Assembly (NCBI GenBank): GCA_964016885.1 | Contig: OZ024747.1 | Location: forward strand, 69,564,001 to 69,628,000 | Length of the DNA: 64,000 nucleotides | From: Eledone cirrhosa | Taxonomy: Eukaryota | Reading direction: 5' to 3' | Part shown: piece by piece, positions 13,440 through 61,355 of the stretch | Numbering within the stretch: position 1 is the first letter of the stretch | How the letters are laid out: each line of letters opens with the position of its first letter | Made by a program: the position numbers and the translations under genes | Notes under the pieces: model-generated | What the model was told of the DNA's origin: nothing | The model's database searches: none | What the model saw: the letters and a program-made list of their open reading frames with translations, nothing else

Positions 13440-13836
13440 ACATATACACACACATATATACATACATAAATATACATACACACACACATATATAATATAC
13501 ACATACATACTAAACACATACATATATACACATATATATATATAACACACACACATACATATCACCATCATCGTTTAACGACCTTACCGGGTTGATAAAA
13601 TAAAGTACCAGAATGTACTGAGTGTTTGCTGGCCTTGTGCCTTAAGTAGAAACAATTATATATACATGTATGTGTTTATATATATATGTATACACATACA
13701 TATATCACATATATTTATTTATTGCATAAATATATCCATTGAGATAAATTTAAGCATTGTCAGATACAAATTCGGATTTCAAGAATTCGCATATTTACAA
13801 ATATATAAATCACATATAATCAAAAATATATATATA

Positions 13837-14210
13837 TATAATAAAATAACAGGAGGCTGGACTTGTGTAAATCCTTGAAAGGTTTATTATACTATGATCA
13901 TTTTAATGACCGGGTTCCGTATGAATCCGATGATATCATCAGGTATTATATTTCGAATACCTGATGATATCACCGGATTCATACGGAACCCGGTCATTGA
14001 AATGATCATAGTATAATAAACCTTTCAAGGATTTACACAAGTCCAGCCTCCTGTTATTTTATTATAATATTTAACTCCGTACTCGCACCACCAACTACAA
14101 AAACGAAGACGGTTGAACTGCTTTACGTTGAGTACTCTCCATAATATTACATCAAGATTGACCATACGGAATTGACCAGCTCTATCCAGTGGTGAACCTT
14201 CAAATCCGAA
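13837..14210. mobile_element. Foldback mini-element (111-bp inverted arms, 8-nt spacer, ~145-bp extension), probable PLE pseudo-LTR remnant
   Basis: Arms 13837-13947 and 13956-14066 are near-perfect reverse complements; CTGATGA core at 13961; TTGAGTACT in the extension; (TA)n flanks. Confidence 0.75.
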
Positions 14211-14278
14211 TATATATATATATATATTTAAAATGCTGGCGGAACAACAAAAGGTTTATGAATACATGTATATATTTA

Positions 14279-14467
14279 ATTATTTCTACTTTTGGCACAA
14301 GGCCAGCAATTATCCCAGTACATTACTGGTACTTTATTTTATTGACCCCGTAATGATGAAAGGTAAGTTAACCTTGGCGGGATTTGAACTCAGATCATAA
14401 AGGGCCGTAACTCTATGCTGCAAAGCATGGCGCCCGACCCTCTACCGATACTGCCAATCCACCGCCT
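14279..14467 (-). mobile_element. tRNA-derived SINE family A
   Basis: Reverse complement of family A consensus. Confidence 0.9.
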
Positions 14468-14475
14468 TTGTATAT

Positions 14476-15866
14476 ATCATCATCATCATCATTGTTTAAC
14501 ATCCATCTTCCACGCTTGCATGGGTTTGGACGGGAGTTTTCCCACCTGAGGCAAGATTGGTTGTCCTGCTCGTATAGGACTCACTGGCGGGTTTTCTACG
14601 GCTGGATGCCCTTCCTAACACCAACCACATTTACAGTGTGGACTGGGAAGTTTTTACCGTGTTACCTACACGGCCACATTACAGCATGGACTGTGTGTTT
14701 TTTTTTTGTCATGACACCTACACGGCCTCATTTGTTTCGGACTGGATGTTGTGGTACCAACATAACTTCACATTTAAGGGGGTGGTGTGGATGGAGTGGG
14801 GGTAGTGTGACGGGGGGGTGTATTTTGTTTGAGGTGCCTACTGACTGAAGGTTTCGCTTTGTACTTAGGCAAGGCGGGTCTTCTGTATAACTGTATAGCG
14901 CCAAAGCTCTCGGTCCAGTGACATTGTCTTGGAGAGGTGTGAGGTCGGAATTTATCAAGTCGGCCCAGGTTTTTCTGGGTCTGCCTACTCCGTGGCTACC
15001 GTCTATTTTTATCGCCCTGCACTTTTTTATACAGCTGTCGTCTTTCATGCGCATCACGTGACCATACCAACGTAGTCTTCTCTCGAGTATACAACATCTG
15101 ATCCCTCTTATTCCTAATTTCTTCCTTAGTTCGTTTATGCTTTGCATTTCACGTATATTACTATTACACATCCAGCGGAGCATGCAAGCTTCGTTTCTCT
15201 CCAGTCTGCATATATCCTCTGCACACAATGCCCAGGTCTCACTGCCATGTAACATTGCTGTTCGTATGCAGGCATCTTACAGCCTGCCTTTCATTTTTAG
15301 AGAGAACCCTTTAGCGGCCAATAGTGGTATAAGCTCTCTGAACTTTTTCCATCCCGTTCTGACTCTAGCAACTGTACTTTCAGAGCACCCTCCCCCACTG
15401 CTGATTTTTTCACCCAGGTAACGGAAGCTGTCCACTATTTCTATAGAACCATCTGTGCAATGGAATGAGTTAGTATTCTGTGGGCACTTGCTGCTACTTA
15501 TTGCACCAGAGCACCGGCCACATATAAAATCTATATTTTTAGTTAGCTTACCTGTGATCCCACTACATCTTTTATGCACCCATACTTTGCATTTGGGACA
15601 TAAAATGGAGTTTCTACCTACTCCTTTCCTACACACTGAGCATGGCCATTTCCCAGATGGGACCGGTGCCCTATTTTCCTTCCTACAAACTAGAAGTTTA
15701 GTCTTAGACAAGTTAACTTTAAGGCCTTTTGATTCTAGGCCATGCTTCCATGTTTGGAATTTCTTCTCTAGTTCAGCCATTGATTCAGCTATGAGTGTTA
15801 GATCATCTGCATATAGGAGTTCCCATGGGCAGCCGGTCTTGAACTGTTATAGCCTGAAGGGCAATA
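14476..15866 (-). mobile_element. 5'-truncated RTE LINE (RT C-terminal half, PHD insert, 3' UTR), with an in-frame stop and small deletions
   Basis: ORFs 15277-15780 and 14728-15255 are in the same frame separated by TAA; nearly identical in protein to 32330-34135; LLYADDL at about 15800-15820. Confidence 0.95.
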
Positions 15867-16115: not shown

Positions 16116-16220
16116 TTGTTTAATAATGTTTCATCAAATCTTAACTATAATAGAGAAAGGAGTGCGGGATTGCGTCCAGAATATATTTTTTGTAAAATAA
16201 GTTGGATTACTTTGAATAAA

Positions 16221-16409
16221 TAATTGTTTCTACTTTTGGCACAAGGCCATCAAATACCCAGTACATTACTGGTACTTTATTTTATCGACCCCGTAAGGAT
16301 GAAAGGCAAAGTTAACCTTGGCGGGATTTGAACTCAGACCGCAAAGGGACGTAACTATGCTGGAAAGCATGGCGTCCGACCCTCTACCGATACTGCGAAG
16401 CCACCGCCC
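16221..16409 (-). mobile_element. tRNA-derived SINE family A with probable target-site duplication
   Basis: Family A consensus; TTACTTTGAATAAATAAT present on both sides (about 16207 and 16411). Confidence 0.9.
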
Positions 16410-16865
16410 TTTACTTTGAATAAATAATGAATGAATATTACATAATTTATCTAAATTTCGTAATTCTTGATTAAATATAAATAATTGTGTTGCTTATTCT
16501 AAAATTCACTTCTTTAAAATTTTCAAGTGTCAACACTTCCGGTTAGCGATCGCTTATATAAACATTCATATATTTCCGTCACTAATTTTTTTCCTAATGC
16601 AGTTTATATATAATATCGTCTTTTTTTTTAATGTATCATGGATTACGTTACTGATTACATAAGACAGTGTAACACAGTCTTCGTTCAATTTCTGTGTATA
16701 TTGTCAATTACAATTTTATTTGATGTATCATATCTACATGTATATATACTTGCGTATAATATCAATAAGCACACTACACATGCTAGTATTATTAATGTTT
16801 GATATGGAATAAAATATAGAATAAAATGTGAACATTCGTGTTATCTCATACATAATATATTTAAC

Positions 16866-17656: not shown

Positions 17657-19329
17657 ATGTATATATGTAGGTATGAATATATATATATATATATGTGATA
17701 TTAAACAATGAAAGAATCAGATAAAATGCAATAGTTAATTAATCCATGGAGGGATTAATTAATTAACTACTACATTTAGTCGTCTTCTTTCATTCAGAGT
17801 TATATAACAATATACATCTGACTGTAATTCTGATTACTCATTGACATGTAATGGGATAGAATCATTCCACAAAAATAGATTTGACTTTGCTTCTATGGGA
17901 TATTCACAACTATATTACATGGAGTTCTAAAACGGTTATAAATCCTACCTTGATTAGGTACAACGCTTTTGAGTATAAATAAATATATATATGTGTAAAT
18001 TAGGTAGTAATGTGTGCTTACGCCATATTTGACAAAATAAAATTAGTCTATTTGTTGGGATTTAAAAAACCCTCTGAACGGAAAAAAGGATGTGTATTGA
18101 TGTACATGGGTCACGAACCCACATCTTTGGTTTGCCAGATCAATGTATTACCATTACACCAACACACCACCCATACCTCCCTCCATTCAATTAGAAGTTA
18201 TGTAACTATAGCAGGTATATATATATATATAAATAGGGAAACACAAAGTAGGCTTTGTTTACAAACAGCTAGCAAATTTGAAAATTAGGTAGTAACATGT
18301 GCTTATGCTGTATTTGATTAAATAAAATTAGTCTGTTAGTTGGGATTTAAAAAAAACCTGGCAAACCAAAGATGTTCGTGTCCCAATACTCATTCTTTTT
18401 CCATTCAGAATAATTTTATAAGTAATATTATTAACTTTCTCCTTATTTAGATGGTATTTTGAACATAAATGTCTCATATAAAATGAAAATGGAAGCTTTT
18501 AACATAAATATAAATATACCTAATCAAATTAAATTTTCATTAGTAATTCACAATATTTAAAGTGATTATATTACATCCCCCAACTTGGTTAAATCCTTTT
18601 TCATGTGTAAATCTTACTGTTTGCTACTTTTGCCTATTACAGAAGCATGTTGCACTCATTGATCTAACTTGAAACCCAGACATCCTTAGTTAATATCAAT
18701 GATATTTGGCACCACTGAAGAGGGAGTACTACTATAACAAGGTGCCGAATTTCTGTAATGTCCAGTGAATAGCCAATGATTGGAATGCCCAACTGGGTAT
18801 GCTCATTGTACAATGTTGTAAGAGAACAAAGCAGAATATTGGTGGAGATAATGTATCAGAAATATCTAAAATAAATGGTAGCATTGAAATATACTGACAA
18901 GGATAAAAGAATAATTTCTGCTATTATTTATTTTGGTACTGATGAATGAAAGTTTAAGCAATATACAATGTAAGAAAAATTATGTAAGATATCAGTATTT
19001 GAATGAATCTGTTATTTGCATCACAACAAATATTTGTAAATAGATCAATCAATATTTTGTAATAAAATACTTTTTGCCATCAGAGTAATTAAAACATGAT
19101 GTGATAAATAATACATTTTTCAATACTGAAAAACAAGCATGGAAAAATGGACTTAAAAACGAAGATGTTAAATTCTAATATTTTCCATTTTAGAATTCCT
19201 TTTATAGTGTCATTTCAACCAATTGATTAGATCTATAAGAAATGTTTTAAATTTGATGTTAAGAACCTAAGAGGTCCCCCACAGTTACATCGACATTTGT
19301 AGTGAACATCAGCAGCAGGTTTGCAGCAA

Positions 19330-24842: not shown

Positions 24843-25616
24843 ACAAGGTCAGCAATTTTAGAAGTGGGGAAAGTCGATTAGACCAATCCCAGTGCATTAC
24901 TGGTAATTTTATCGAACCCATATTGTGAAGGCATGTGGCTGAATGGTAAGAGAATTGGATTCGCAATCGTGAGGTTGTGAGTTCGATTCCTGGCCCGGGC
25001 GATGTGTTATGTCCTTGAGCAAGACACTTTATTTCATGTTGCTCCTTCTACCCGGAGTTGTGAGCTATAGATAGTATTAGCAATTGGAAAGACCAACGGA
25101 AACATTGTTTCCTTGGTCTGATTTGATGAAAGTCGATCGAGTGTCGATCGATGAAAGCAAAGCTAACCTCAACAGGGTTTGAACTCAGAAAGTAAAGGGA
25201 TTTAACTGTATGCTGCAAAGCATGTTGGCTGACGCTCTACCAATACTGCCAACCCCCTGTCAGTAATAATGATAATAATGGTTTCTGATTCAGGCACAAG
25301 GCTAGCAATTTTAGGGGAGGGGAAAGTCAATTAAATTGCCCCCAGTGTGTGACTGGTACTTTATTTTATTGACCTCGTAAGGATGAAAGTCAAAGCTGAC
25401 CTCTGTGGTATTTTGTACTCAAAACAATAATAATTGTTTCTACTTTTGGCACAAGGCCAGCAATTATCCCAGTACATTACTGGTACTTTATTTTATCGAC
25501 CCCGTAAGGATGAAGAGCAAAGTTAACCTTGGCGGGATTTGAACTCAGACCATAAAGGGCTGTAACTCTATGCTGCAAAGCATGGCGTCCGACCCTCTAC
25601 CGATACTGGCAATCCA
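24843..25616 (-). mobile_element. Tandem cluster of three family A SINEs, the first interrupted by a family B SINE
   Basis: Family A pieces at 24843-24920 plus 25151-25260, 25278-25422 and 25430-25616. Confidence 0.85.
24927..25060 (+). mobile_element. tRNA-derived SINE family B (nested)
   Basis: A-box TGGCTGAATGG, B-box GAGTTCGATTCC, CORE-like TGTCCTTGAGCAAGACACTTTATTTCA; related copies at 38710 and 45570. Confidence 0.8.
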
Positions 25617-26224: not shown

Positions 26225-26227
<3 letters not shown>

Positions 26228-26422
26228 GGAAAAAGAATGACCCCGACGGCAGAGCTCAAGCCGTTTCGACAGCTATTTCCAGATTTCCAGAAATTGCTGT
26301 CGGAACGGCTTGAGCTCTGCCGTCAGGGTAATTCTTTTTCCTATTACCCACTCTACTACACTTAGTATTGATTACTTTGGTGCGTTATTGTCCATCTGGT
26401 TTCTTACCACATTTCCTTTGTT
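26225..26422. mobile_element. Foldback mini-element (55-bp arms) and extension; solo terminus of the PLE family at 59.7-61.3 kb
   Basis: Arms 26225-26279 and 26290-26344; right arm plus extension resembles the reverse complement of 59730-59866; (TA)n on both sides. Confidence 0.8.
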
Positions 26423-32297: not shown

Positions 32298-34640
32298 AGG
32301 AAAACCGTGATATTGTCGGGGAGAAGTGTGTGCTTAACGATGATGGCATACTTGCCATCACCGACGCTGATAAGAAGGTAGCTTGGAAGTGTCACTACGA
32401 AAGGCTTCTAAATGAGGAGAACAAATGGGAGAAAGACAGTCTCCCCCACATCGACCCAATAGAGGGACCAGCAGTGTTAGTCCAGGGTAGTACAATAAGC
32501 AAGGCAATCAAAGATATGAAGACGGGTAAGGCGGCTGGTCCTTCGGAAATAGTTGCTGAGATGCTGAAGGCATCTGGTTCGGTGGGACACACCATGGTCA
32601 CCCGGATAGTTAACCAAGTCGTACAGAATGGGGTTGTTCCGAAGGACTGGCGTAGCAGCATCATCGTTAACTGCTATAAGGGAAAAGGAGATGCCCTAGA
32701 TAGGAGTAACTATAGAGGCATTAAATTAATCGACCAGGTCATGAAGGTCACGGAAAAAGTAATAGCGCAACTAATCAGAGAGAGAATTGATCTAGATGAA
32801 ATGCAGTTCGGGTTTGTGTCAGGCAAAAGTACCACAGACGCTCTTTTCATTGTACGACAACTACAGGAGAAGTACCTAGCTAAAAGTAAACCCCTATACT
32901 TAGCTTTCGTCGACTTGGAGAAAGCCTTCGACAGAGTCCCCCGCTCCATTATCTGGTGGTCTCTTAGAAAACTAGGTGTTGACGAATGGCTTGTGAGAGC
33001 TATACAAGCCATGTATAAAGAAACAGTCAGTAAGGTTAGAATTAACAACGAATATAGTGAAGAGTTTAGCGTAAAAGTTGGTGTCCATCAGGGCTCTGTT
33101 CTTAGCCCCCTACTATTTATTATTGCCCTTCAGGCTATAACAGAGGAGTTCAAGACCGGCTGCCCATGGGAACTCCTATACGCAGATGATCTAACGCTCA
33201 TAGCTGAATCAATGACCGAACTAGAGAAGAAATTCCAAACATGGAAGCACGGCCTAGAATCAAAAGGCCTTAAAATTAACCTGGCTAAGACAAAAGTTCT
33301 AGTTTGTAGGAAAGAAAATATGGCGGCAGTCCCATCTGGGAAATGGCCATGCTCAGTGTGTAGGAAAGGCGTAGGTAGAAACTCCATTTTATGTCCCAAA
33401 TGCAAAGTATGGGTGCATAAAAGATGTAGTGGGATCACAGGTAAGCTAACTAAGAACATAGATTTTACATGTGGCCGGTGCTCTGGTGCAATAAGCAGCA
33501 GCAAGTGCCCACAAAATACTAGCTCCTTCAACTGCGCAGAGGGTTCTATAGAAATAGTGGACAGCTTCCGTTACCTGGGTGACAAAATCAGCAGTGGGGG
33601 AGGGTGCTCTGAAAGTACAGTAGCTAGAGTCAGAACTGGATGGAAAAAGTTCAGAGAGCTTATACCACTATTAGCCGCTAGAGGGTTCTCCCTAAAAATG
33701 AAAGGCAGGTTATACGATGCCTGCATACGAACAGCAATGCTGCATGGCAGTGAGACCTGGGCATCGTGTGCAGAGGTTATACGCAGACTAGAGAGGAACG
33801 AAGCTTGCATGCTCCGCTGGATGTGCAATAGTAATATACGTGAACAGCAAAGCATAAACGAACTAAGGAAAAAATTAGAAATAAGAGGGATCAGATGTTG
33901 TTTACTCGAGAGAAGGCTACGTTGGTACGGTCACGTGATGCGCATGAAAGACGACAGCTGTATAACAAAGTGCAGGGCAATAAAGATAGACGGTAGCCAC
34001 GGAGTAGGCAGACCCAGAAAAACATGGTACGAGCTGATAAATTCCGACCTCACACGCTTACACCTCTCCAAGACAATGTCACTGGACCGAGACCTTTGGC
34101 GGTACTCAGTAATAGAGAAGACCCGCCTTACCTAAATACAAAGTAAAAACCTACTACAGTCAGTAGGCATCTCTATCAAAACACCCCCCCGTCCCACCAC
34201 CTCCACCCCATCCACACCGCCCCTTTCAATGTACAGTTATGTTGGTCCCACAACATCCAGGCCGAAACAAATGAGATCGTGTAGGTGTCACGACAAAAAA
34301 ACACACAGTCCACGCTGTAAATGTGGCCGTGTAGGCAACACGGTAAAAACCTCCCAGCCCCACACTGTAAATGTGGTTGGTGTTAGGAAGGGCATCCAGC
34401 TGTAGAAAACCCGCCAGACAGTCCACGCTGTAATGTGGCCGTGTAGGCAACACGGTAAAAACCTCCCAGCCCCACACTGTAAATGTGGTTGGTGTTAGGA
34501 AGGGCATCCAACTGTAGAAAACCCGCCAGACAGTCCTATGCGAGCAAGACAACCACTCTTGCCTCAAGTGGGAAAACCCCCGTCCAAACTCATGCAAGCG
34601 TGGAACACGGACGCTAAACCTGATGATGATGATGATGATG
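32298..34640 (+). mobile_element. Young 5'-truncated RTE-clade LINE with repeat-containing 3' UTR and (GAT)n tail
   Basis: Intact RT frame, ~500-bp 3' UTR with duplicated ~112-bp unit, (TGA)n tail, TA microsatellite on both sides. Confidence 0.95.
32300..34135 (+). CDS. RTE LINE reverse transcriptase (endonuclease domain missing), with C4HC3 PHD-like insertion
   Basis: [70 protein letters not shown]; frame open from the microsatellite junction. Confidence 0.95.
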
Positions 34641-37027: not shown

Positions 37028-37216
37028 TGGTGGATTGGCAGTATCAGTAGAGGGTTGGAGGCCATACTTTGCAGCAAAGAGTTACGGCCCTTTATGGTCT
37101 GAGTTCAAATCCCGCCGAGGTTAACTTTGCCTTTCATTCTTATGAGGTCGATAAAATAAAGTACCAGTAATACACTGGAATAATTTCTGGCCTTGTGCCA
37201 AAAGTAGAAACAATTA
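37028..37216 (+). mobile_element. tRNA-derived SINE family A
   Basis: Family A consensus; TTATCTAATG on both sides (likely TSD). Confidence 0.9.
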
Positions 37217-37458
37217 TCTAATGTGTACTCTCTTCTTTTAGGGTGTGATTTGAAAATGATTTGACTGGTATTTCTAGTAATGGTAGTTAATGTTAATGTA
37301 AAAGTATTTGTTGTGATAGTTGCTCATATAGTATTACTATGATTATTGTCTTTGATGATACAATGTTCATGATGATTATGATGATTATGAGGGAGAGGAG
37401 GAACATTTCTTTCTATGGGAGAAGTCCAAACAGATTTTATAATAAGAATTGTTTCTGG

Positions 37459-38064
37459 ATAATTTGAAGGGGAGGGGAAAGTCGATTAAATCAACCCCAA
37501 TGCATTACTGGTGCTTTACTTATCGACCCTGTAAGGATGAAAGGCAAAGCTAACCTCAGTGGGATTTGAACTCAGAACATAACTCTCTGTCGTGAAGCAG
37601 GGTGTCCGATGCTCAACAGATACTACCAATCCACTACCCTAATAAAGATTTCTAGTATAGGCTCAAGGCCAGTAATTTGGTGGGAGGGGAAAGTCAATTA
37701 AATTGATCCCAGTACGTTACTGGTGCTTTATTTTATCGACCCCGTAAGGATTAAAGGCAAAGTTAATTTTGGCGGGATTTGAACTCAGACCATAAAGGGC
37801 CGTAACTCTATGCTGCAAAGCATGGCATCTGATCCTCTACCATTACTGCCAATCCACTGCCCTTATAATAATAAAGATAATAATTGTTTCTACTTTTGGC
37901 ACAAGGCCAGCAATTATCCCAGTGGTACTTTATTTTATCGACCCCGTAAGGATGAAAGGCAAAGTTAACCTCGGTGGGATTTGAACTCAGACCATAAAGG
38001 GCCGTAACTCTTTGCTGCAAAGCATGGCGTCCAACCCTCTATCGATACTGCCAATCCACCGCCC
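37459..38064 (-). mobile_element. Head-to-tail array of three family A SINEs
   Basis: Copies at about 37459-37640, 37647-37863 and 37881-38064, separated by AATAAAGAT(AAT) linkers. Confidence 0.9.
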
Positions 38065-42005: not shown

Positions 42006-44502
42006 CTTCACTGTAATTACCACTCTCTACCTGTATTCACTTAGCCTGCTTTCTTTCAATGCTTGCCTATATTCATTACTTGCTAATGTACTTGATATGT
42101 GTTTGTGTTGAATTCAATCCTTCTAAGTGATCCTGATGATCTGCAGGGGTGTTTCTATAATATGTGGATAATTAGTAATAACTGATTAAATCATTTTTTG
42201 CATATATATATGCAAGCTTCTCACCTGTATAGAAACGATTGTAGAGATTAAAGTTGGATTTAATTTTAAAATCTTGGTTTTCTTCAATTCAAATATTTAT
42301 GCTCATTTGCTCTAACCATCTTTAATAGCAAGAACTTTAACCTTCAGTAGACTATTTCGATAGTTTCGAATCCCTACTTGCTGAAGCATGCTTTCAGCTT
42401 TTCACACCTTACAAAAACTAATAGTGAAATAATTACACACACACTCATCCATGACTACATTGTTATCTTCCATATTACCTGGTGTCGAAGAGGCTACTTT
42501 TTTTCCTAAAATACATCTCAAAAATCTACCATGCGTCCTGGAGGCCGAAGGTTGTTCATTATTTTTTTTCAAATTTTTGGTTGTCACAATTAGGCTCCTC
42601 GAGGAAAAAGCATCTTCGGCATCGAGAGATATGGTAATATGTCCTTATAATGGAAGGATGTAATTTGAGAAAATCTGGCTGTTACTTTCATTAAGTCTTT
42701 GATGCTGGTGTCTTAGAATGGAAAGAACAGACAATAAATAGAATATTTTATTAAACAGAATGGTAAACTATCTGATATTTGGACCAAACAGTTGCTCATC
42801 ATTGACTCTTTAGTCCTGAATGGAAAAAATACTGACATTTTCAGTTTTCTGAAACATACAAGTTAATACTTGTCGTATGTGATTCTGAAAAGAATATAAA
42901 TATGGTTAAAATAAAGATATTATGTTTAAATTTAATTAATATGGCAAAATATATGAGAGAAAGAGGGAAAGGAGGAGAGAGAGAAGGTAATAATAGAAAG
43001 GGAAAGAAGAGAATTTAAGAAAATTGCAATGATTTGCATATGACACAAGAGTTAGTGATACAAGTAAGGTATAGATTCATTGTGAGATAACAGGCGAGTT
43101 TGGGGGAAGAATAAATAAATTAAATTATGGTGGTAGATGTTTAAATAGGATCTGAAAACCTTACATTTTCATATGGAAAAAAAACTTAATGAAGAAGAAC
43201 AGAGACAACTGGTGTTTGGTGATGTTTTACCAAGGAAAAGTAATTTCTCTGAAGATTATGATGGTGATTGTGATGATTTCGACCATTAATGATATAATGA
43301 TGCACATAATGACAACAATGATTAGAATGCTGATAAGGAAAATGATAAGAATAAGGGTTATGATGATTCTGAAGATGGTGATGCTGAGGAGGATAATTAT
43401 TTGAGGAGGAAGATCATGATGTTGAAAATGATAATTATGACAACAACGATGTTGGTGGTGATGATGATGATGAGGAGGATAAGGATGATGATGAGGAGGG
43501 GGCAATTTATCACAGTCAAACGTGCCCTTTTGATTCCTTTTGTATTTCCAGAAAAGAAATTGTTTTCCTAGGTTTATTTTTAAGGATAGCAACTTTTTAT
43601 CATCTGGAATTATTCAGTGATTTTCTTGGATCTATCTGATTATAAAATGAATATCAATAGCATTAGGCTTCAGAAGAATGTACTGTTGCCATGCAAGCTG
43701 TTACCATGTTTTCTCTCTTTGTTTTCACCCCTTTCCACCCTCCGTAAAGCTTACTGAACTTTCTCCATCATAAAACAGCTTCTTTGACCAATGTAAAATA
43801 TAGCCATATCTCTCCAATGAACAGAGCTAATCATGTACATAAGAAAACCCAACAGCAATATCATCACCCCCACTATCACCACCACAAATACCTTCATGAT
43901 CACCATTACAAGTATCACCACCACAAACACCATCAGAAATATCATTGCCACTGTCATCACCTTAACCCCATGTCCTACCTTCACCAACACCACCATCAGC
44001 ATTTCCAGCAGTATTATCACCATATCTTGCAACACCACCACCACCACCACCAATATCATCATTGGAAATAATAATAATACAGTTTTATTAAGGATCAAAC
44101 ATGTGTGCAATAACATTTGGAATGGCTACCATTAATGTATAACCAGTGAGTTGGTTAACTGATTCTTCTATGTCTAGATGCATCTAAAGTATTAACTTTG
44201 AGTAAAATGATAAAACAATGCTGAAAATATTTCTTGATTAGATTTCTTACTGCTCATAGGAGTATCAATGGTCAAAAGTATATTTGGGGAATCATCACCA
44301 TCATTGTCATGATGGTGATGATGACGATGATGATGATGATCATCATCATCTGCAGTAGCAGCAGCAAGCTTTATTCTGACTAGCTTGATATCACAGACAT
44401 CATCCAGGTTTACTTCCAATTTTTGATGTTTGTGTGTGTGTGGAGATGATGGCTACATATCAGTATATTAGCCTTTTATCCTGTGACTCTTCAGTGAAGA
44501 TA

Positions 44503-44505
<3 letters not shown>

Positions 44506-44553
<48 letters not shown>
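44506..44553. repeat. (TG)n microsatellite
   Basis: Direct reading. Confidence 0.95.
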
Positions 44554-44554
<1 letters not shown>

Positions 44555-44711
44555 TTCAGAGAAGATTTATGAAGGAAACACTGAAATGAAAAGGTAATAA
44601 TGAACTGAAATAATTGAAAAAGAAATCTTTCCCAGGATTCTTTCATTATTTTTATATATATATATATATGTATAAAAGAAGAAATTAAAAGATGGTTAAA
44701 GAAGTTCCATA

Positions 44712-44781
44712 TATTTTATTATGCACATTTCGAAAACAACATCATCCTGGGACAAAAATTGTGTTCTCATCAGATAAAATA
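44712..44781 (-). ncRNA. Minimal type-I hammerhead ribozyme (antisense copy)
   Basis: TATTTTAT-CTGATGA-stem II-GAAA-TGTGCA-TA-ATAAAATA on the minus strand. Confidence 0.6.
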
Positions 44782-44853
44782 AGGTAACATGATATGAGGC
44801 CTAAAAACACTTGTCAACAGGAAAGTGTTTTTAGGCCTCATATCATGTTACCT

Positions 44854-44923
44854 TATTTTATCTGATGAGAACACAATTTTTGTCCCAGGATGATGTTGTT
44901 TTCGAAATGCGTATAATAAAATA
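44854..44923 (+). ncRNA. Minimal type-I hammerhead ribozyme
   Basis: Stem I TATTTTAT/ATAAAATA (8 bp); core CTGATGA 44862-44868; stem II GAACACAA/TTGTTTTC; GAAA 44904-44907; near-palindromic stem III ATGCGTAT; predicted AUA cleavage after 44915. Confidence 0.65.
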
Positions 44924-45567
44924 TATGGAACTTCTTTAACCATCTTTTAATTTCTTCTTTAATATATACTCCAGTTCTACCAACTGTTGAGTGCTACTTA
45001 TCTGATATGTGCATAGTTTTATTGTTCTACAATATTACTCACCTTCTACATATATAATATATATGAGAAAGAGAGAGAGAGACACTCCACATGCATGCAC
45101 ATACACACACACATGTTTTGAATGTTCATTTTTATTTCCTATCTACATTTGATATTTTAAGAACAAGAAAGAAAGAGTGTGTGTGTGTTTGTGTGTCTGT
45201 TTGTTTGTGTGTGTGTTTGTGTGTGCTTCAGTTGTATAATGTCCTCTTTCCACCATAAGTACATAAAAATCAAATACAATACATCCAGGCTGCTGTTATT
45301 ACAATACTGTTTAGCCTGACTTATTGCACAACGTACCATTGAAAAGGTGTGAACATCTGCCAATCTACAAAATATGTTTAGGGTGTGCTAAATCTATTTT
45401 GTTGCTTCTAATCTATACATTTACTAAATATGCAACATGCCATATTTTCGCTTGAGAAGTTGTGGTTAAGAATCATACAGTAGTTTCAATAACCACAGCA
45501 TCAAAAATAGTTACTACATTAATAGTAACAATAACAAGAACAGCAACTATAACAAAACAATAACAAT

Positions 45568-45740
45568 GAAGGCATGGAATCTAGTTATTATGGTGTTGGA
45601 CATACAATAGTAATGTTGTGGGTTCAATTCTTGAACTGGGTGGCACATTGTGTTCTTCAGCAAAATGGTTTACTTCATGTTGTTCTAGTCAATTCAGTTG
45701 AAAATGAATACCAACTAATGGGTTAACCCTGTGATGGGTT
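45568..45740 (+). mobile_element. Degenerate SINE family B
   Basis: GAAGGCATGG..GGGTTCAATTC..TGTGTTCTTCAGCAAAA. Confidence 0.6.
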
Positions 45741-45899
45741 ACAGTATACTGAAGTATTTTGGTTTGTGACAGCTGATACTTTTCACTTACAATGTACATA
45801 TATCTATCTCCATATATATATATAGAGAGAGAGGAGCAGTGGCAGTTCTGAGAGGTAATCTAACTGAAGGCCACAAATGAGATATGTGGCTGGAGCAGA

Positions 45900-46645
45900 G
45901 GCCCAGAGAGTGGGAGAGTGACTTGATGGTGGAATAGTAGGGTGGATGAAACAAAGCTAAAAGACAGGTATAGAAAGAAAAGGCAAAATGGGGGAAGCAG
46001 AGAACTTTACCAAGAAACCAGGAGAGAGGCTAGGCAACATGTATACTCTGCAAGGTGGTAAACAGAAAATAAAGCGTTTATGCATGTTATACAATGTTAG
46101 GGATCATGAGGCAGTGTGTCGGGGAAAATTGTGATGTTGTTGGGGAGAAGTGTATTCGAGATGACAATGGTGCACTAATGCCAAAAAGAAGGCAGCATGA
46201 AAAAGTCACTATGAAAGACTGATGAATGAAGAGAAAGAAGGCTTGCGAGAAAGATAGCCTGCTTCAAATAGACTCAACAGAGTGACGAGCTTTACAAGTC
46301 AGCAGCAGCTAAGTAAGTAAGGCAATTAAGGATATAAAGACAAGCAAAGAAGCGAAGCCATCAAGAATTGTTGCTGAGATGCTAAAAAGAAACTGGGTCA
46401 TTGGAAATTGTTACTGGAATGAAAGCATAACCTGGAATCAAAAGGTCTTAAAGTCAACTTGACAAAGACCAAAGTTCTAGTATATATTAAGGAAAACAAA
46501 TCCCTGATCCCTTCTGAGATATGGCCCTACTCAGTGTGTAGGAAAATGGTGGGTACAAATTCCATCCTCTGTCCCAAATGCAAATTATGGGCACACAAGA
46601 GATGTAGCACGATTTCAGGTAGGCTAGCAATGAATGTGGGTGTTA
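45900..46645 (+). mobile_element. Old, internally deleted copy of the PHD-containing RTE
   Basis: 46120-46390 resembles 32298-32570; 46430-46640 encodes [35 protein letters not shown]. Confidence 0.8.
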
Positions 46646-49548
46646 AATATGTTTGATAATGATTTTGAAAGATATGGAAGAAAATTAACAATTGATTTAG
46701 AGGAATGTAAAATAAAATAAAGCAATGGCTATAATAGCAGGTAAAACTCAATGATTCAAGAATTGTATATGCAACACACAAATGTAGTCAGGTAACTGGA
46801 GGGAAAATGCTTCTTTCTCATCATGCAACTTTTGCATCCTTTTGTAATTTGACCTTTGACCCATTCAGTTCCCTATGCTTTGTCTCTTCTTTGTCTCATC
46901 GTTATTAGTTCCAGGGCCAATTTTTAAAACTAACTTGTATTCTTTCTATTTCTATATATATAGTAGTGAAATGGCAAAGTCATTAAAATTGTTCCAGTTC
47001 TCTAAGCCCTTAAATCAACCTTACATTTCAACCTTTCAGACTCAATAAACCAAGAACCAATCCAAGGGTGATGGATTAGTGGAATTGTGAAAGATTCAAA
47101 CAAAATGCTTTGTGATATCTGATCTGGTTGTGTGTATTTCGAGGGCAAATTACACCTACTAGGAGTTACCACTGGCAGACCATCAACTAAGGAAATCAAT
47201 TATAACTCCCATGCTTCATCTATTGAGAAATTTTAAAATTAGGTGTTTATGATTTCCTACCACAGCCATGGTCTTTATGAACACTGCTAAACATGTGATC
47301 AATATACTACTGGTATGACAATTCTGATTCTGGTGATGGAGCTATGAAGGTAATACATACATAGATTTAGAAACCCAATTGTATTGAACTAAGCGTAAAA
47401 AACTGATAAGGAAATATGAAAATCCTTAACCTAAATGATTAAATTGAAGCACAGTCTTCTTTTCAATATAAGATGTTAGAAAAAAGGGTGTTCTCTACTT
47501 ATACAAATATCTACTTAATGATGTCACTTGCTTTTGCGTTTTTTAGGACCTGATTTGACAATTAACAAAAGTTTCATTGGCTAATTTTAATATGATGTCA
47601 GTTGCTTTTGTGGATGACAAACAGTGTCATCCATAAATGAATAAAAAGTTTGATATTTTGATGGAGAAATTACCAGCTACTAACTGATTAAATTAGTTAA
47701 TTTCCTACATAATATATTGGTCATTCACTAAAAGATGGTCATATAGATATATATTAAACTATAAACATTTATATATTTATGGAGTAAACAGATCAATAAA
47801 AAAAAAAGAGGAGACACAAAGAAGAAGTAATGTCATTTGAGAGGTCACAGAAGGTGTGCCAAAAGAGCTTTGACGAACTAAGTAATAATTAATAATAAAG
47901 CTGAAGTGGAAATCAAATAGTGCTTGTGTTTTTGTAGGCAGGACTGGCAAAATGATCACCCCCAAATATAACAACATTTATATAATTATAGATAAGTTTA
48001 AAAGCCTTACAATGCATTGAAAAATTAAAGGTGCCAAGATAGCAATAGAATTTTACCTTAGCAAATTTAATTATCCCATTATCAGGAGTTTAAAAACCCA
48101 TTATCAGGAGAGGATCCATGTGAAGGTCTTAAAGGACAAGTTGGAGATGAGTTGTTGTTTCATTACCGCTAAAACTGTATCAACAACAGCCACTGCTCTT
48201 GCTAATATGTGTGTTTTTTTACATATGATACTAAAAACATGAAAACAGGCGTTTTTGCTTTGAAAGTAAACATTGTGTTTTGCCCATATTCCACTCAGAT
48301 GAATGCAAGCTGTATTTTTAAAGTATATTTATCAACCAAATTATTATGTGCTACTGATAATTAAATTTCTTTGTGTTTGCAAATATTTTTGTTTATATAT
48401 TATCACACTCCTGTTCTAATTTAATTGTTTGGGTAATAAATAATGTTGAGCTTACAGCTATGATTCAGGAAGCTTCAGCATTGATTAAATTATACACACA
48501 ATATTTTTCTCTGCTTTTAAATACAAACATCCACAAATTAGCTTGTATATATATATACACACACACATATATGCATACAGTCACACACATATATATATAT
48601 GCATACAGTCACACAGACACACACCACTTGTTATACAAGCTTCAACAATCAATTTCTGTTTTGATGGTTGTTCTATCTGCACTTGGATCCAGAGGATGAA
48701 GTTAACAATTTCAGAAAATATTTTCTTCCCTAAGGTTGTCATAAATCTAATCTTGGCATTCTAACACTGATGATGCAGACTATATCTCCTATTATCCTTT
48801 GCTATATTAATATATGTTTACTAGCATGGAAGTGATTTAGAAGAATTGCTAGAATTATAAACAAAAATGTATTGTGGTATTTAGATAAATCATATTGTAT
48901 TCTGCATTGAAATGTGGCTATGATGAACTTTGCCCTTTGCCCTTACAGGGTCAATAAAAATACGAAGCTGTAATATACAGTGGTGATCTTCAACAATTTT
49001 TAGCAGTGAACCAAATTTGGAATTCAGTATTATATTACTGTTTCATAATAATATGATTTTACTTTATATATTATTACAATAGAGATGAAAAAATACCTGG
49101 GAAGAACAAAAATGGTAATTTTTTTCTCTTCTGTTGACTAATAAAGCTAATTCCTGTTATATTTGATAATTAAGTAACCATCTGGTTACTAAATTAATCA
49201 AGGAATTTATTAGGTACCAATCTAATAATAAAAGTAAAGTGAAATTTAACTGGTGCATGTATTTGTATTGAAAGCATGACCCTTCCAAAGTCTTGGATTT
49301 TTAGCTTCAAGTGAGCGATCATAGAGCTGTATGATCATTATATTATATATAAATCTCATTATATATATATAATGGACTGACTATCAATGTTGATGTGTTC
49401 TTATACCTCCAAGCATTTTTTTTAAAAGAATAAATGTATCATGAATGTGTAGCCTTACTTTGCTGTCGTATGAATTGGACATTCCTCCCAGCAACATCTT
49501 TAAAGACAATTTTTCTCTGATGAGTCTTAAAGATGCATCTCTACTGTA

Positions 49549-49675: not shown

Positions 49676-49730
<55 letters not shown>

Positions 49731-49755
49731 TCCACAACAGTTAGTTCACCATCCT

Positions 49756-49794
49756 GAGAACAATTGTTTCACCTTTTATTCGGATCATCAGCTC
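49756..49794 (-). ncRNA. Minimal hammerhead ribozyme-like motif
   Basis: Minus strand GAG-CTGATGA-TCC gaataaaa GGT-GAAAC-AATT-GTT-CTC; perfect palindrome ACAATTGT at stem III; adjacent to (TA)n. Confidence 0.55.
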
Positions 49795-50091
49795 GGTCTA
49801 AATGAAGTTGTACGGAAAAGGAAAAACAACTGTACATACACATTTACACAAGGCTTGTATATGTGTATGTTTGTATATTTTCTTTTGAGAAGGTGATTAT
49901 TTAGATGCACGAAGAGAAACTGTTCCAGATATGGCAAAGCTATATTATAAAGTTATTGTAAAATGGTGATGAGTGGCAGGATGAGGATGATGTTAATGGG
50001 GATTATGATGACAGAAATAATATAGTATAAATAGATGTGAGAATGATGATGATAAGCATTGTGTAGAGAATATGCACATTGCAAAATAAGA

Positions 50092-58047: not shown

Positions 58048-58474
58048 TAGCCTGCTCTGTAGGATCTGTGGCGAGAAAGAGGAAACTGTGGCTCACATTG
58101 AATTGAAGTGTAAACACCTATCCCAGACTCATTTTAAGAGTCATGATATCATAGGTAAAGTGATCCACTGGCATTTATGCAAACTGAATGTTTTACCCCA
58201 CTTTGTGAAGTGATAAGAGCATAAGCCATAGTCAGTGTTAGACAGGGATTGGGCGAAAGTGTTGTGAGATTGCAGGATGTAAACAGATAAAGAATTAAAA
58301 TACAATAAAACTGGCCCAAGAAAAACACTTCAAAAGGGGTGTCTACTGGAAACAGCACGGACCCTCCAATAGGTCATGAATATCTGAGGCTGCAGGTAGT
58401 GGATTGATGCTCATTTGGACAATTTTTCTGGTTAACTAACATCAATGATTGAGATATCAAATTCATAATAATAA
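58048..58474 (+). mobile_element. R4/Dong-type LINE 3' relic ending in (TAA)n
   Basis: LCRICGEKEETVAHIELKCKHL..SHDIIGKVIHWHLCK; QKGCLLETARTL. Confidence 0.7.
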
Positions 58475-58783
58475 TAATTGCTTCTACTTTTGGCACAAGG
58501 CCAGCAATTATCCCAGTGCATGACTGGTACTTCATTTTATCGACCCCAAAAGGATGAAAGGCAAAGTTAATTTGGCGGGTTAGAACTCAGACTGTAAAGG
58601 GCCCTAACTCTATGCTGCAAAGCATGGCATCCGACTCTCTATCGATACTGCCAATCCACCGCCCTTATAATAATCATTGTTTCTACTTTTGGCACAAGGC
58701 CAGCAAATTACCCAGTGTATCACTGGTATTTTATTTTATCAACCCCGTAAGGATGAAAGGCAAAGTTAACCTCGGCGGGATTT
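58475..58783 (-). mobile_element. Two tandem family A SINEs (the second 5'-truncated)
   Basis: Family A consensus, (AAT)n linkers. Confidence 0.9.
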
Positions 58784-59729: not shown

Positions 59730-61355
59730 TAATGAAGGAAGTGTGGTAAGAAACCAGGTGGAACACAATGCACCAGAGTATTCGATACTTAGGGTAGTAG
59801 AGTGGGTAATAGGAAAAGGTTCAGGACCCCGATGGCAGAACTCAAGCCGTTTTGACGGCTATTTCTGGACTAAATTAGATTTTTAGCATGGTAATAAATA
59901 ACCGAACTTTTCAAGGGGTAATTCCTTATATGGGAAGATTTCCTATGATCGGATTATTCTTACTACATAAACTCATTGAAATGTTTCCTGCTTTCGGCGG
60001 TGGATTGTACTGAGACGATGGGCTCCTTACCCTCAAAGGGTACAACCCCACTAGTACGGACCGGGTCCGTAAACACCTAATCAACTTATTCCGAGACTGG
60101 GGTTTTAAAATCACCCTACAGACGTCCCTAACCTGAGTCAGTTTCCTGGACGTTACCCTCAGCCTTGAAAATTACCTGTACTATCCATACAGGAAACCAA
60201 ACGACAACCTAAACTACATCCACCGCTGTTCTAACCATCCTAGAAACATCACCAATAACCTGGTTAAAAACATCTCCCTCCACATATCTCGTTTGTCCGC
60301 TAATGAGCAGATATTCGATGAACATGCGGCCTATTACAACTAGGCCTTCAAGTGAAGCAGCTTTCAGGAGGAAATCTCATTTTACCCTGGCTCCCCTAGC
60401 GGAACCAACAGGTGACGCCGCCGCTCACGTCACGTAATGTGGTTCAACCCTCCCCACAATGCCGAGGCTGCAACACCAATCGGGAAAATCTTCTTTAGAC
60501 TCCTCAAAAAACACCTCCCACCAAAACACTGCTACCACAACATAATCAACAAAAACACTATCAGATTCTCCTACAGCACCACACCCAACTTCGCACAAAA
60601 CATCGCCTCCTCAAACAACAAGAAACTCAACTCCTATGGAAGAAACAACCTAGACATTAGTGGAGAGCCGACCAGGAGGTGTAACTGCCCTAATAGAAAC
60701 GTGCCCCCTCAACAATGGTAGATGCTGTGATCTACCAATGCAATGTGAGGACGGAAAACCCCAACAAAGCCTATATAGGATTAACCGCCTGTGACTTTAA
60801 GACCCAGCTCTACCAACACCAACATACGTTCAGAAACACAGCCCAGCGACATGCCACTACACTTTCGGGCCACATCTGGGACCTCCAAGATAATAACATC
60901 ACATACCATCTTACTTGGAGCTTACTTTCCAGGGCTAACTCCTACATGGGAGGACACCGTCCGTGTAACTTATGCTCGGAGGAAACAATACAAATGCTGT
61001 TTACGAAGGACCAACTCCTAAACAAAAAAGACGAACTTGTAACCGCATGTAAACACCGATTGCATAGGTCTTACCTTGCCTTCAAACCCCCTCATGGCCT
61101 GGGTGGGTAGACAGTGGCTGTAACATCCTTCTTTTCCCCACTTGCCGAACAAGACAGGGGAAACCCCAGCATACATAGATAGATGTAATTCTTTTCTTTT
61201 TTCCCTTTATGCCTTCCTATCACTTCCTTCCACTCCCTCTCCTCTTCCTCTTTCCTCTACCCTGAGGCAGCCCATCGGGCTTTTGTAGCCTAGTACCCCC
61301 ACCCCCACGAATTCTATATAACAATGGCTGAAAACGCAATACCAGCTAAAAATAT
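59730..61355 (+). mobile_element. 5'-truncated Penelope-like element with inverted terminal segment
   Basis: RT and GIY-YIG relic at 59935-61110; inverted terminus at 59730-59900; ACCA(T)GCTAAAAAT shared in opposite orientation at about 59880 and 61345. Confidence 0.9.
59935..61110 (+). pseudogene. PLE RT C-terminus and C-terminal GIY-YIG endonuclease (stops and frameshift)
   Basis: GLY*DDGL (YRDD), FLDVTL, YRKP, SNHP, WFNPP, SYSTTPN, CNC, VIYQC..YIGLT..FK, CNLCSEE, LLNKKDEL..CKH. Confidence 0.9.

Follow-up and report, generated by a model that had tools for sequence, protein, structure and literature searches.

Head-to-head truncated ends of a Penelope-like retroelement family form a hammerhead-bearing foldback in Eledone cirrhosa

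Penelope-like elements (PLEs) are the closest described relatives of the locus reported here. For the Hydra clade of PLEs, the features DKT, CxCx5C, CxxC..E and CxH are given in PMC8557442, and the supplement of that paper includes Hydra-1_Obim from Octopus bimaculoides, whose targets are (TA)n and whose hammerhead differs. An inverted 5′-truncated copy, insertion into (TA)n and a tail that is often confined to a single end have been published for PLEs (PMC8557442, PMC3846280), and Inr-like motifs have been noted in their pseudo-LTRs (pLTRs; PMC3846280). Minimal PLE hammerheads cleave poorly as monomers (PMC4209133), and hammerhead loci are listed in squid (PMC6962438). In the Poseidon clade, the PAc protein nicks AT-rich DNA on both strands and extends each of them; it initiates at two internal sites, which delimit the tail, and its template is uncleaved RNA (PMC11167929). 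The ribozyme of the PAc system is described as cleaving only with the protein, and the in vitro results given for PAc show no difference in start sites between the two strands (PMC11167929).

The window analyzed here is a stretch of 64,000 nucleotides from E. cirrhosa (assembly GCA_964016885.1, contig OZ024747.1, positions 69,564,001 to 69,628,000 of the forward strand), and all positions below refer to it. Inverted-repeat comparison identified two foldback arms of 138 bp each, at 44675–44812 and 44823–44960. Two mismatches separate them (44910/44725 and 44912/44723), and stem III of a hammerhead motif contains both. The initial annotation had described these arms together with a 10-nt loop. 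The arms held, while the supposed spacer (44813–44822) proved to be left-arm element sequence. In its full extent, the left arm is a 153-nt 5′-truncated PLE end on the minus strand (44675–44827; it matches the 3′ end of the ORF-bearing copy L035 at 98.7% identity across 153 nt), and it shares 5 nt of microhomology with the right arm, where the two overlap (44823–44827). The right arm is a 138-nt 5′-truncated PLE end on the plus strand (44823–44960; 98.6% identity to L035), and it extends 89 nt further into a tail (44961–45049, plus strand), a stretch absent from the left arm and overlooked by the initial annotation. In the tandem full-length copy L038, this tail continues as the 5′ leader, with the ORF starting 76 nt later. 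The left arm ends at the short 3′ boundary of the family (S, equivalent to 44960 on the right arm) and the right arm at the long boundary (L, 45049). The outer ends of both arms adjoin (TA)n microsatellites, which form the left (44653–44674) and right (45050–45064) target flanks. The junction (44813–44827) comprises the 10 nt of left-arm sequence plus the microhomology and coincides with a small hairpin that belongs to the element itself. The exact 36-nt junction had one match in the genome, this locus, and no direct repeat of the arm was detected in 43000–47000 or in the window. The foldback is a pair of 5′-truncated PLE ends (pseudo-LTRs) lying head-to-head in (TA)n and no independent unit. 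The copy is young, with 2 arm differences, and shows no sign of conservation.

Longer copies of the family continue into an ORF with reverse transcriptase (RT) and GIY-YIG regions, which bears out the proposed derivation from a PLE. A 647-aa open frame with YRDD and GIY-YIG-like motifs lies upstream of the arm in L031 and L035. Arm and tail together occur upstream of the ORF in L038, L040, and L041, and again downstream in L038 and L040. L038 has the arrangement pLTR-ORF-pLTR and is interrupted by stops and insertions. The motif HSDKT (DKT in place of DKG) was present in L036, L038–L041, L053, and others, and a CxCx5C linker with CxxC and CxH around a conserved E and N was present in L036, L037, L053, and most others. 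The N-terminal motif is RWI where the Hydra clade has RWK, such that RW is kept and the third residue is I. Neither the parent ORF nor two homologs had a Pfam match above cut-off, and a PDB sequence search gave no significant match; the RT/GIY-YIG assignment follows from motifs and from resemblance to the published Hydra alignment. Judged by these motifs, the parent is an autonomous Penelope-like retroelement of Hydra-clade character. We treat the family as separate from Hydra-1_Obim because the hammerhead sequence of the latter differs. An affiliation with the Neptune clade was dropped, as the family motifs fit the published Hydra-clade description, and a MITE or DNA transposon was ruled out given that the arms continue into the RT ORF and that the ends are asymmetric.

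Copies were abundant across the genome, with arms at PLE ends. Of the 1828 candidates from a right-arm search of the 3.0-Gb genome, 40 were scored and yielded at least 58 matches, and a 25-mer at the ribozyme core had 799 exact genome matches (control 0). A sister family with 71% protein identity contains many copies with an open 821-aa frame, for example at C1:341720817, C2:65999312, C5:589479, and C5:595273; many of these copies scored equally and several form tandem or inverted pairs. With such intact frames, the sister family has been active in this genome very recently. The ORF of L053 was also seen to carry a ~70-residue Asn/Thr/Pro-rich insert between the RT thumb and the linker, which is absent from the homolog P0001. 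Rotifer PLEs are described as having N-rich inserts (PMC3846280).

The end types of the family were surveyed using the first 100 listed of the 799 core matches, corresponding to 88 loci with flanks of 1.5 or 3.5 kb, three of the loci coming from the right-arm search. Head-to-head pairs with both ends classifiable were found at 46 of the 88 loci, and the remaining 42 showed no classifiable partner arm within the 1.5–3.5 kb flank. The 46 pairs comprised 43 S+L, 3 S+S, and 0 L+L (p 1.9e-10 vs. independent choice of ends). L090 was excluded since one of its arms fell below the identity cut, and a separate tally of 17 top matches was kept out of the statistics, as it includes the window itself and a false pair, L003 (a distant match). 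The inverted 5′-truncated terminal copy suggested by the initial annotation recurs with a one-sided tail in 43 of the 46 pairs, and the 89-nt tail exceeds the published 30–40 bp. The constant arm length that a mobile unit had led it to look for did not appear; arm lengths and junctions differed from locus to locus. An unrelated second family, sampled from the first 30 of 5387 matches to a 24-mer, gave 10 S+L pairs among 11 (1 S+S), with a tail of ~140 nt and the same protein motifs as the first family. Near-strict S+L pairing in two families, taken with the shared rare variants and the pile-up of 5′ ends described below, points to coordinated priming of the two target strands. The accessible parts of the literature consulted contained neither a count of this S+L rule nor tails this long. 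The window itself holds a second hammerhead foldback, from this unrelated family and of the same build, ~31 kb away, at 13829–14210, with arms at about 13838–14068, a palindromic stem III, a ~140-nt tail on the right arm, and (TA)n on both sides; its 24-mer has 5387 exact genome matches.

The two arms of a locus shared rare variants in 9 of 53 pairs. In 2000 re-pairings, a control that takes no account of subfamily, the mean was 0.67 and the highest value 4. Subfamily-diagnostic cells agreed in 281 of 306 comparisons within loci vs. 9361 of 15872 (59%) between loci. Gene conversion between arms could be an alternative source of the shared variants. Of 132 arms, 13 began at one A located 166 nt upstream of S (−166), within a motif that we take to be Inr-like. 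More broadly, 18 of the 61 arms starting at −230 to −108 lay within four bases, where ~2 were expected, and 4 arms of the pile-up derive from one duplicated pair. Rather than marking a start site, this pile-up may come from a 6-nt palindrome or from microhomology to (AT)n. A small peak of arm starts at −107 likely represents a subfamily mismatch with the reference copies and was disregarded. None of the 132 arms started within 2 nt of the ribozyme cut, and the flanks of the 132 arm ends were nearly all (TA)n or (CA)n.

Junctions recurred at the element-native hairpin, which has 5–6 bp. A looser junction pattern had 12 matches, 10 of which were foldbacks with both ends, this locus included; these 10 belonged to two subfamilies, had unrelated flanks, and were all S+L. 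The loop-bearing arm was S in 8 of the 10, as it is here, and L in the other 2. Most other junctions lay off the hairpin, with overlaps of 0–8 nt or extra letters. L134 (S+L) and L135 (S+S), located 51 kb apart at C1:398923124 and 398974190, had a common junction bearing 9 extra letters and were 96.5% identical, with flanks that were unrelated; one of the two has lost its tail. This pair indicates that a foldback can be copied again as a unit, but rarely.

Each arm carries the conserved core and three stems of a type I hammerhead, namely an 8-bp stem I, CUGAUGA, a long stem II, GAAA, and an AUA site. The motifs lie at 44712–44781 on the minus strand and at 44854–44923 on the plus strand, the latter with a predicted cut at 44915/44916. 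The complete core claimed for each arm was recovered with a motif rule that gave 0 matches in 5000 dinucleotide shuffles of the arm. In 10 aligned copies of the family and sister families, 96.9% of cells were paired vs. 32–63% in slid-partner controls, and hammerhead covariation in the same alignment was not above shuffles. The alignment was also run without L151. Rfam showed no hammerhead among 150 listed of 175 window-wide matches at E ≤ 1, nor among 4 matches for the right arm at E ≤ 10. Most arms of the family (128 of 171) have the palindromic stem III, and each window arm is one C-to-T change away from it, in agreement with the origin that the initial annotation had traced for the arm differences. 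By sequence, then, the hammerheads are the ordinary pseudo-LTR ribozyme motif of the family, carried along twice. Another stretch, 49726–49803 on the minus strand (core 49791), contains a single minimal hammerhead-like motif with a palindromic stem III and ends in (TA)n; it is likely the end of a third PLE family. A 120-nt imperfect hairpin at 26225–26344 also adjoins (TA)n, lacks a hammerhead core, and resembles a hairpin upstream in L030.

Folding predictions suggest that the ribozymes at this locus are likely silent, buried in the 138-bp duplex. The whole rod was predicted at −226.8 kcal/mol vs. −7.5 for the hammerhead fold. A read-through transcript contains one ribozyme and its antisense, with the antisense transcribed first. 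Cleavage is therefore unlikely, as the antisense arm would be made first and the rod is far stabler than the hammerhead fold. The predicted dimer helix of stem III was −10.5 kcal/mol for the palindrome vs. −6.5 and −6.0 for the two window variants. Silence is predicted because the arms are without the likely −166 start site, the antisense comes first from either side, and both palindromes are weakened.

The head-to-head ends probably arose in a single insertion event, with reverse transcription primed from both of the nicked target strands. The GIY-YIG endonuclease of the element would nick both (TA)n strands, one 3′ end then priming at 44960, the short site, and the second 89 nt further along at the long site (45049), with both priming sites inside uncleaved element RNA from one source. 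The two cDNAs would run toward the 5′ end of the RNA and anneal through the 5-nt microhomology at the native hairpin, followed by trimming and filling in of the annealed ends. Arms starting at −166 may represent run-off at the mRNA 5′ end. The coupling of one short with one long end is unexplained by the accessible account of PAc, because the PAc strands showed equal start sites (PMC11167929). A bolder version makes this asymmetry obligatory. A complex of two RTs, its RNAs joined by palindromic stem III, would prime one strand at S and the other at L near the mRNA 5′ end, the ribozyme fold would act as a dimerization signal for integration, and the genome would be seeded with thousands of RNA-editing hairpins. 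We consider this version distinctly improbable.

Self-priming by snap-back, in which a single cDNA would fold back at the native hairpin and be copied into the second arm, is the main alternative and is, in our judgment, unlikely though still worth weighing. It has been proposed for palindromic PLE junctions (PMC3846280), and it would account for shared rare variants and for a junction on the 5–6-bp hairpin that recurs in 10 foldbacks of two subfamilies. A tailed first cDNA whose copy ended at a TA-like short site would also produce one short and one long arm, and 2 of the 10 hairpin junctions fit directly. In the other 8, however, the arm reaching the loop is the short one, such that the tail sits on the arm a copy-back would have to make and its template lacks it, and the hairpin is not where most other junctions are found. 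If the loop flipped later, the assignment of arms could be blurred, and 8:2 is near 5:5. An assembly foldback artefact has a negligible probability. No contig from four sequencing runs spans the locus, as expected of a high-copy repeat, and the contigs show a high-copy repeat with the majority stem III. The arms nevertheless differ at 2 sites, end at two family-defined boundaries, and fit the insertion pattern.

The initial annotation proposed a retrozyme-like non-autonomous unit, transcribed, self-cleaving, and remobilised whole. L134/L135 show that a foldback was copied again, and the hairpin-junction pattern has 12 matches, both of which speak for such a unit. The exact junction is nonetheless unique, the junctions of L134 and L066 have 2 genome matches each, and the hairpin-junction loci vary in subfamily and in which arm is tailed. 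In addition, arm lengths vary, the parent is autonomous, tandem direct ribozymes are lacking, and the ribozyme is predicted to be buried in the rod; non-LTR retrozymes are described as tandem direct repeats (PMC7229834; bioRxiv 2026.07.22.740005). The junction counts largely refute this proposal, which is now very improbable. A hairpin used by the host as double-stranded RNA within a host transcript, as a substrate for ADAR or small-RNA pathways, is given a slightly slimmer chance still. The 138-bp rod is near-perfect, thousands of such arms exist genome-wide, and PLE copies are a source of small RNAs in a rotifer (PMC3846280). Against this, the copy is young with no conservation sign, and the 76 of 119 window ORFs scanned contained no host-gene domain, with a large intron still compatible; they gave only retroelement RT/PHD/zf-RVT matches and two weak sub-threshold ones.

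Other features were observed across the window. RT frames followed by a PHD finger lie at 32300–34132 (+), 15280–15846 (−), and 46423–46653 (+), a combination typical of DIRS-like or related retroelements. A decayed, distant PLE fragment at 59945–61074 has 31–38% identity to the L053 protein. A ~200-bp dispersed repeat has many window copies (37029–38060, 14270–14469, 16215–16430, 25418–25616, and 58455–58783) and is also inserted twice in L038, and a tRNA-like match above the Rfam gathering score lies at 18098–18168 (−).

The locus itself is ordinary, likely an inactive leftover of an abundant family and common in kind, and its value is that of one among hundreds of fossil insertion products. 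The family is a new PLE family of known kind, and the interest lies in the constraints on the insertion mechanism. The S+L rule, the long tails, and the shared variants bear on how inverted copies, tails, and the second strand form in PLEs (PMC8557442, PMC11167929). They also give concrete predictions for a reconstituted system.

In L1 twin priming, two opposite-strand primings are joined by microhomology to give an inversion; the L1 segments are not known to overlap, whereas the two arms of this locus are copies of one stretch. Published accounts of PLEs already include inverted truncated copies, one-sided tails, a palindromic stem III, and (TA)n targets. The Hydra-clade PLEs described in PMC8557442, such as Hydra-1_Obim, resemble this family in having a single ORF with RT and C-terminal GIY-YIG, the DKT, CxCx5C, CxxC..E, and CxH motifs, a sense hammerhead near the 3′ end, and (TA)n targets, and inverted 5′-truncated copies like those here are noted for Penelope-13_HM of the same clade. 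In contrast to these PLEs, the present family has RWI rather than RWK and a hammerhead with a long stem II whose sequence is unlike that of Hydra-1_Obim, and its tail is 89 nt (~140 nt in the second family) vs. the 30–40 bp described in that paper, in hundreds to thousands of copies. The minimal PLE hammerheads of PMC4209133 likewise have a type I core in a pseudo-LTR and a palindromic stem III suited to dimers, and opposite-strand motif pairs 100–700 bp apart were ascribed there to truncated PLEs, as here; our motif differs in its 8-bp stem I, its stem II of ~15 pairs, and the absence of an unpaired base before stem II. Non-LTR retrozymes (PMC7229834; bioRxiv 2026.07.22.740005) are similarly short, non-coding, and PLE-related with a type I hammerhead, but are described as releasing linear and circular monomers from their direct repeats, whereas the two ends at the present locus are inverted relative to each other, each strand carrying one ribozyme. 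The PAc system of Poseidon (PMC11167929) matches the proposed insertion in its two internal start sites bounding the tail, its AT-rich target, the extension of both strands, and the uncleaved RNA template; in the family described here, the start sites are located within the 5′ leader at a spacing of 89 nt, and almost every insertion uses one of each.
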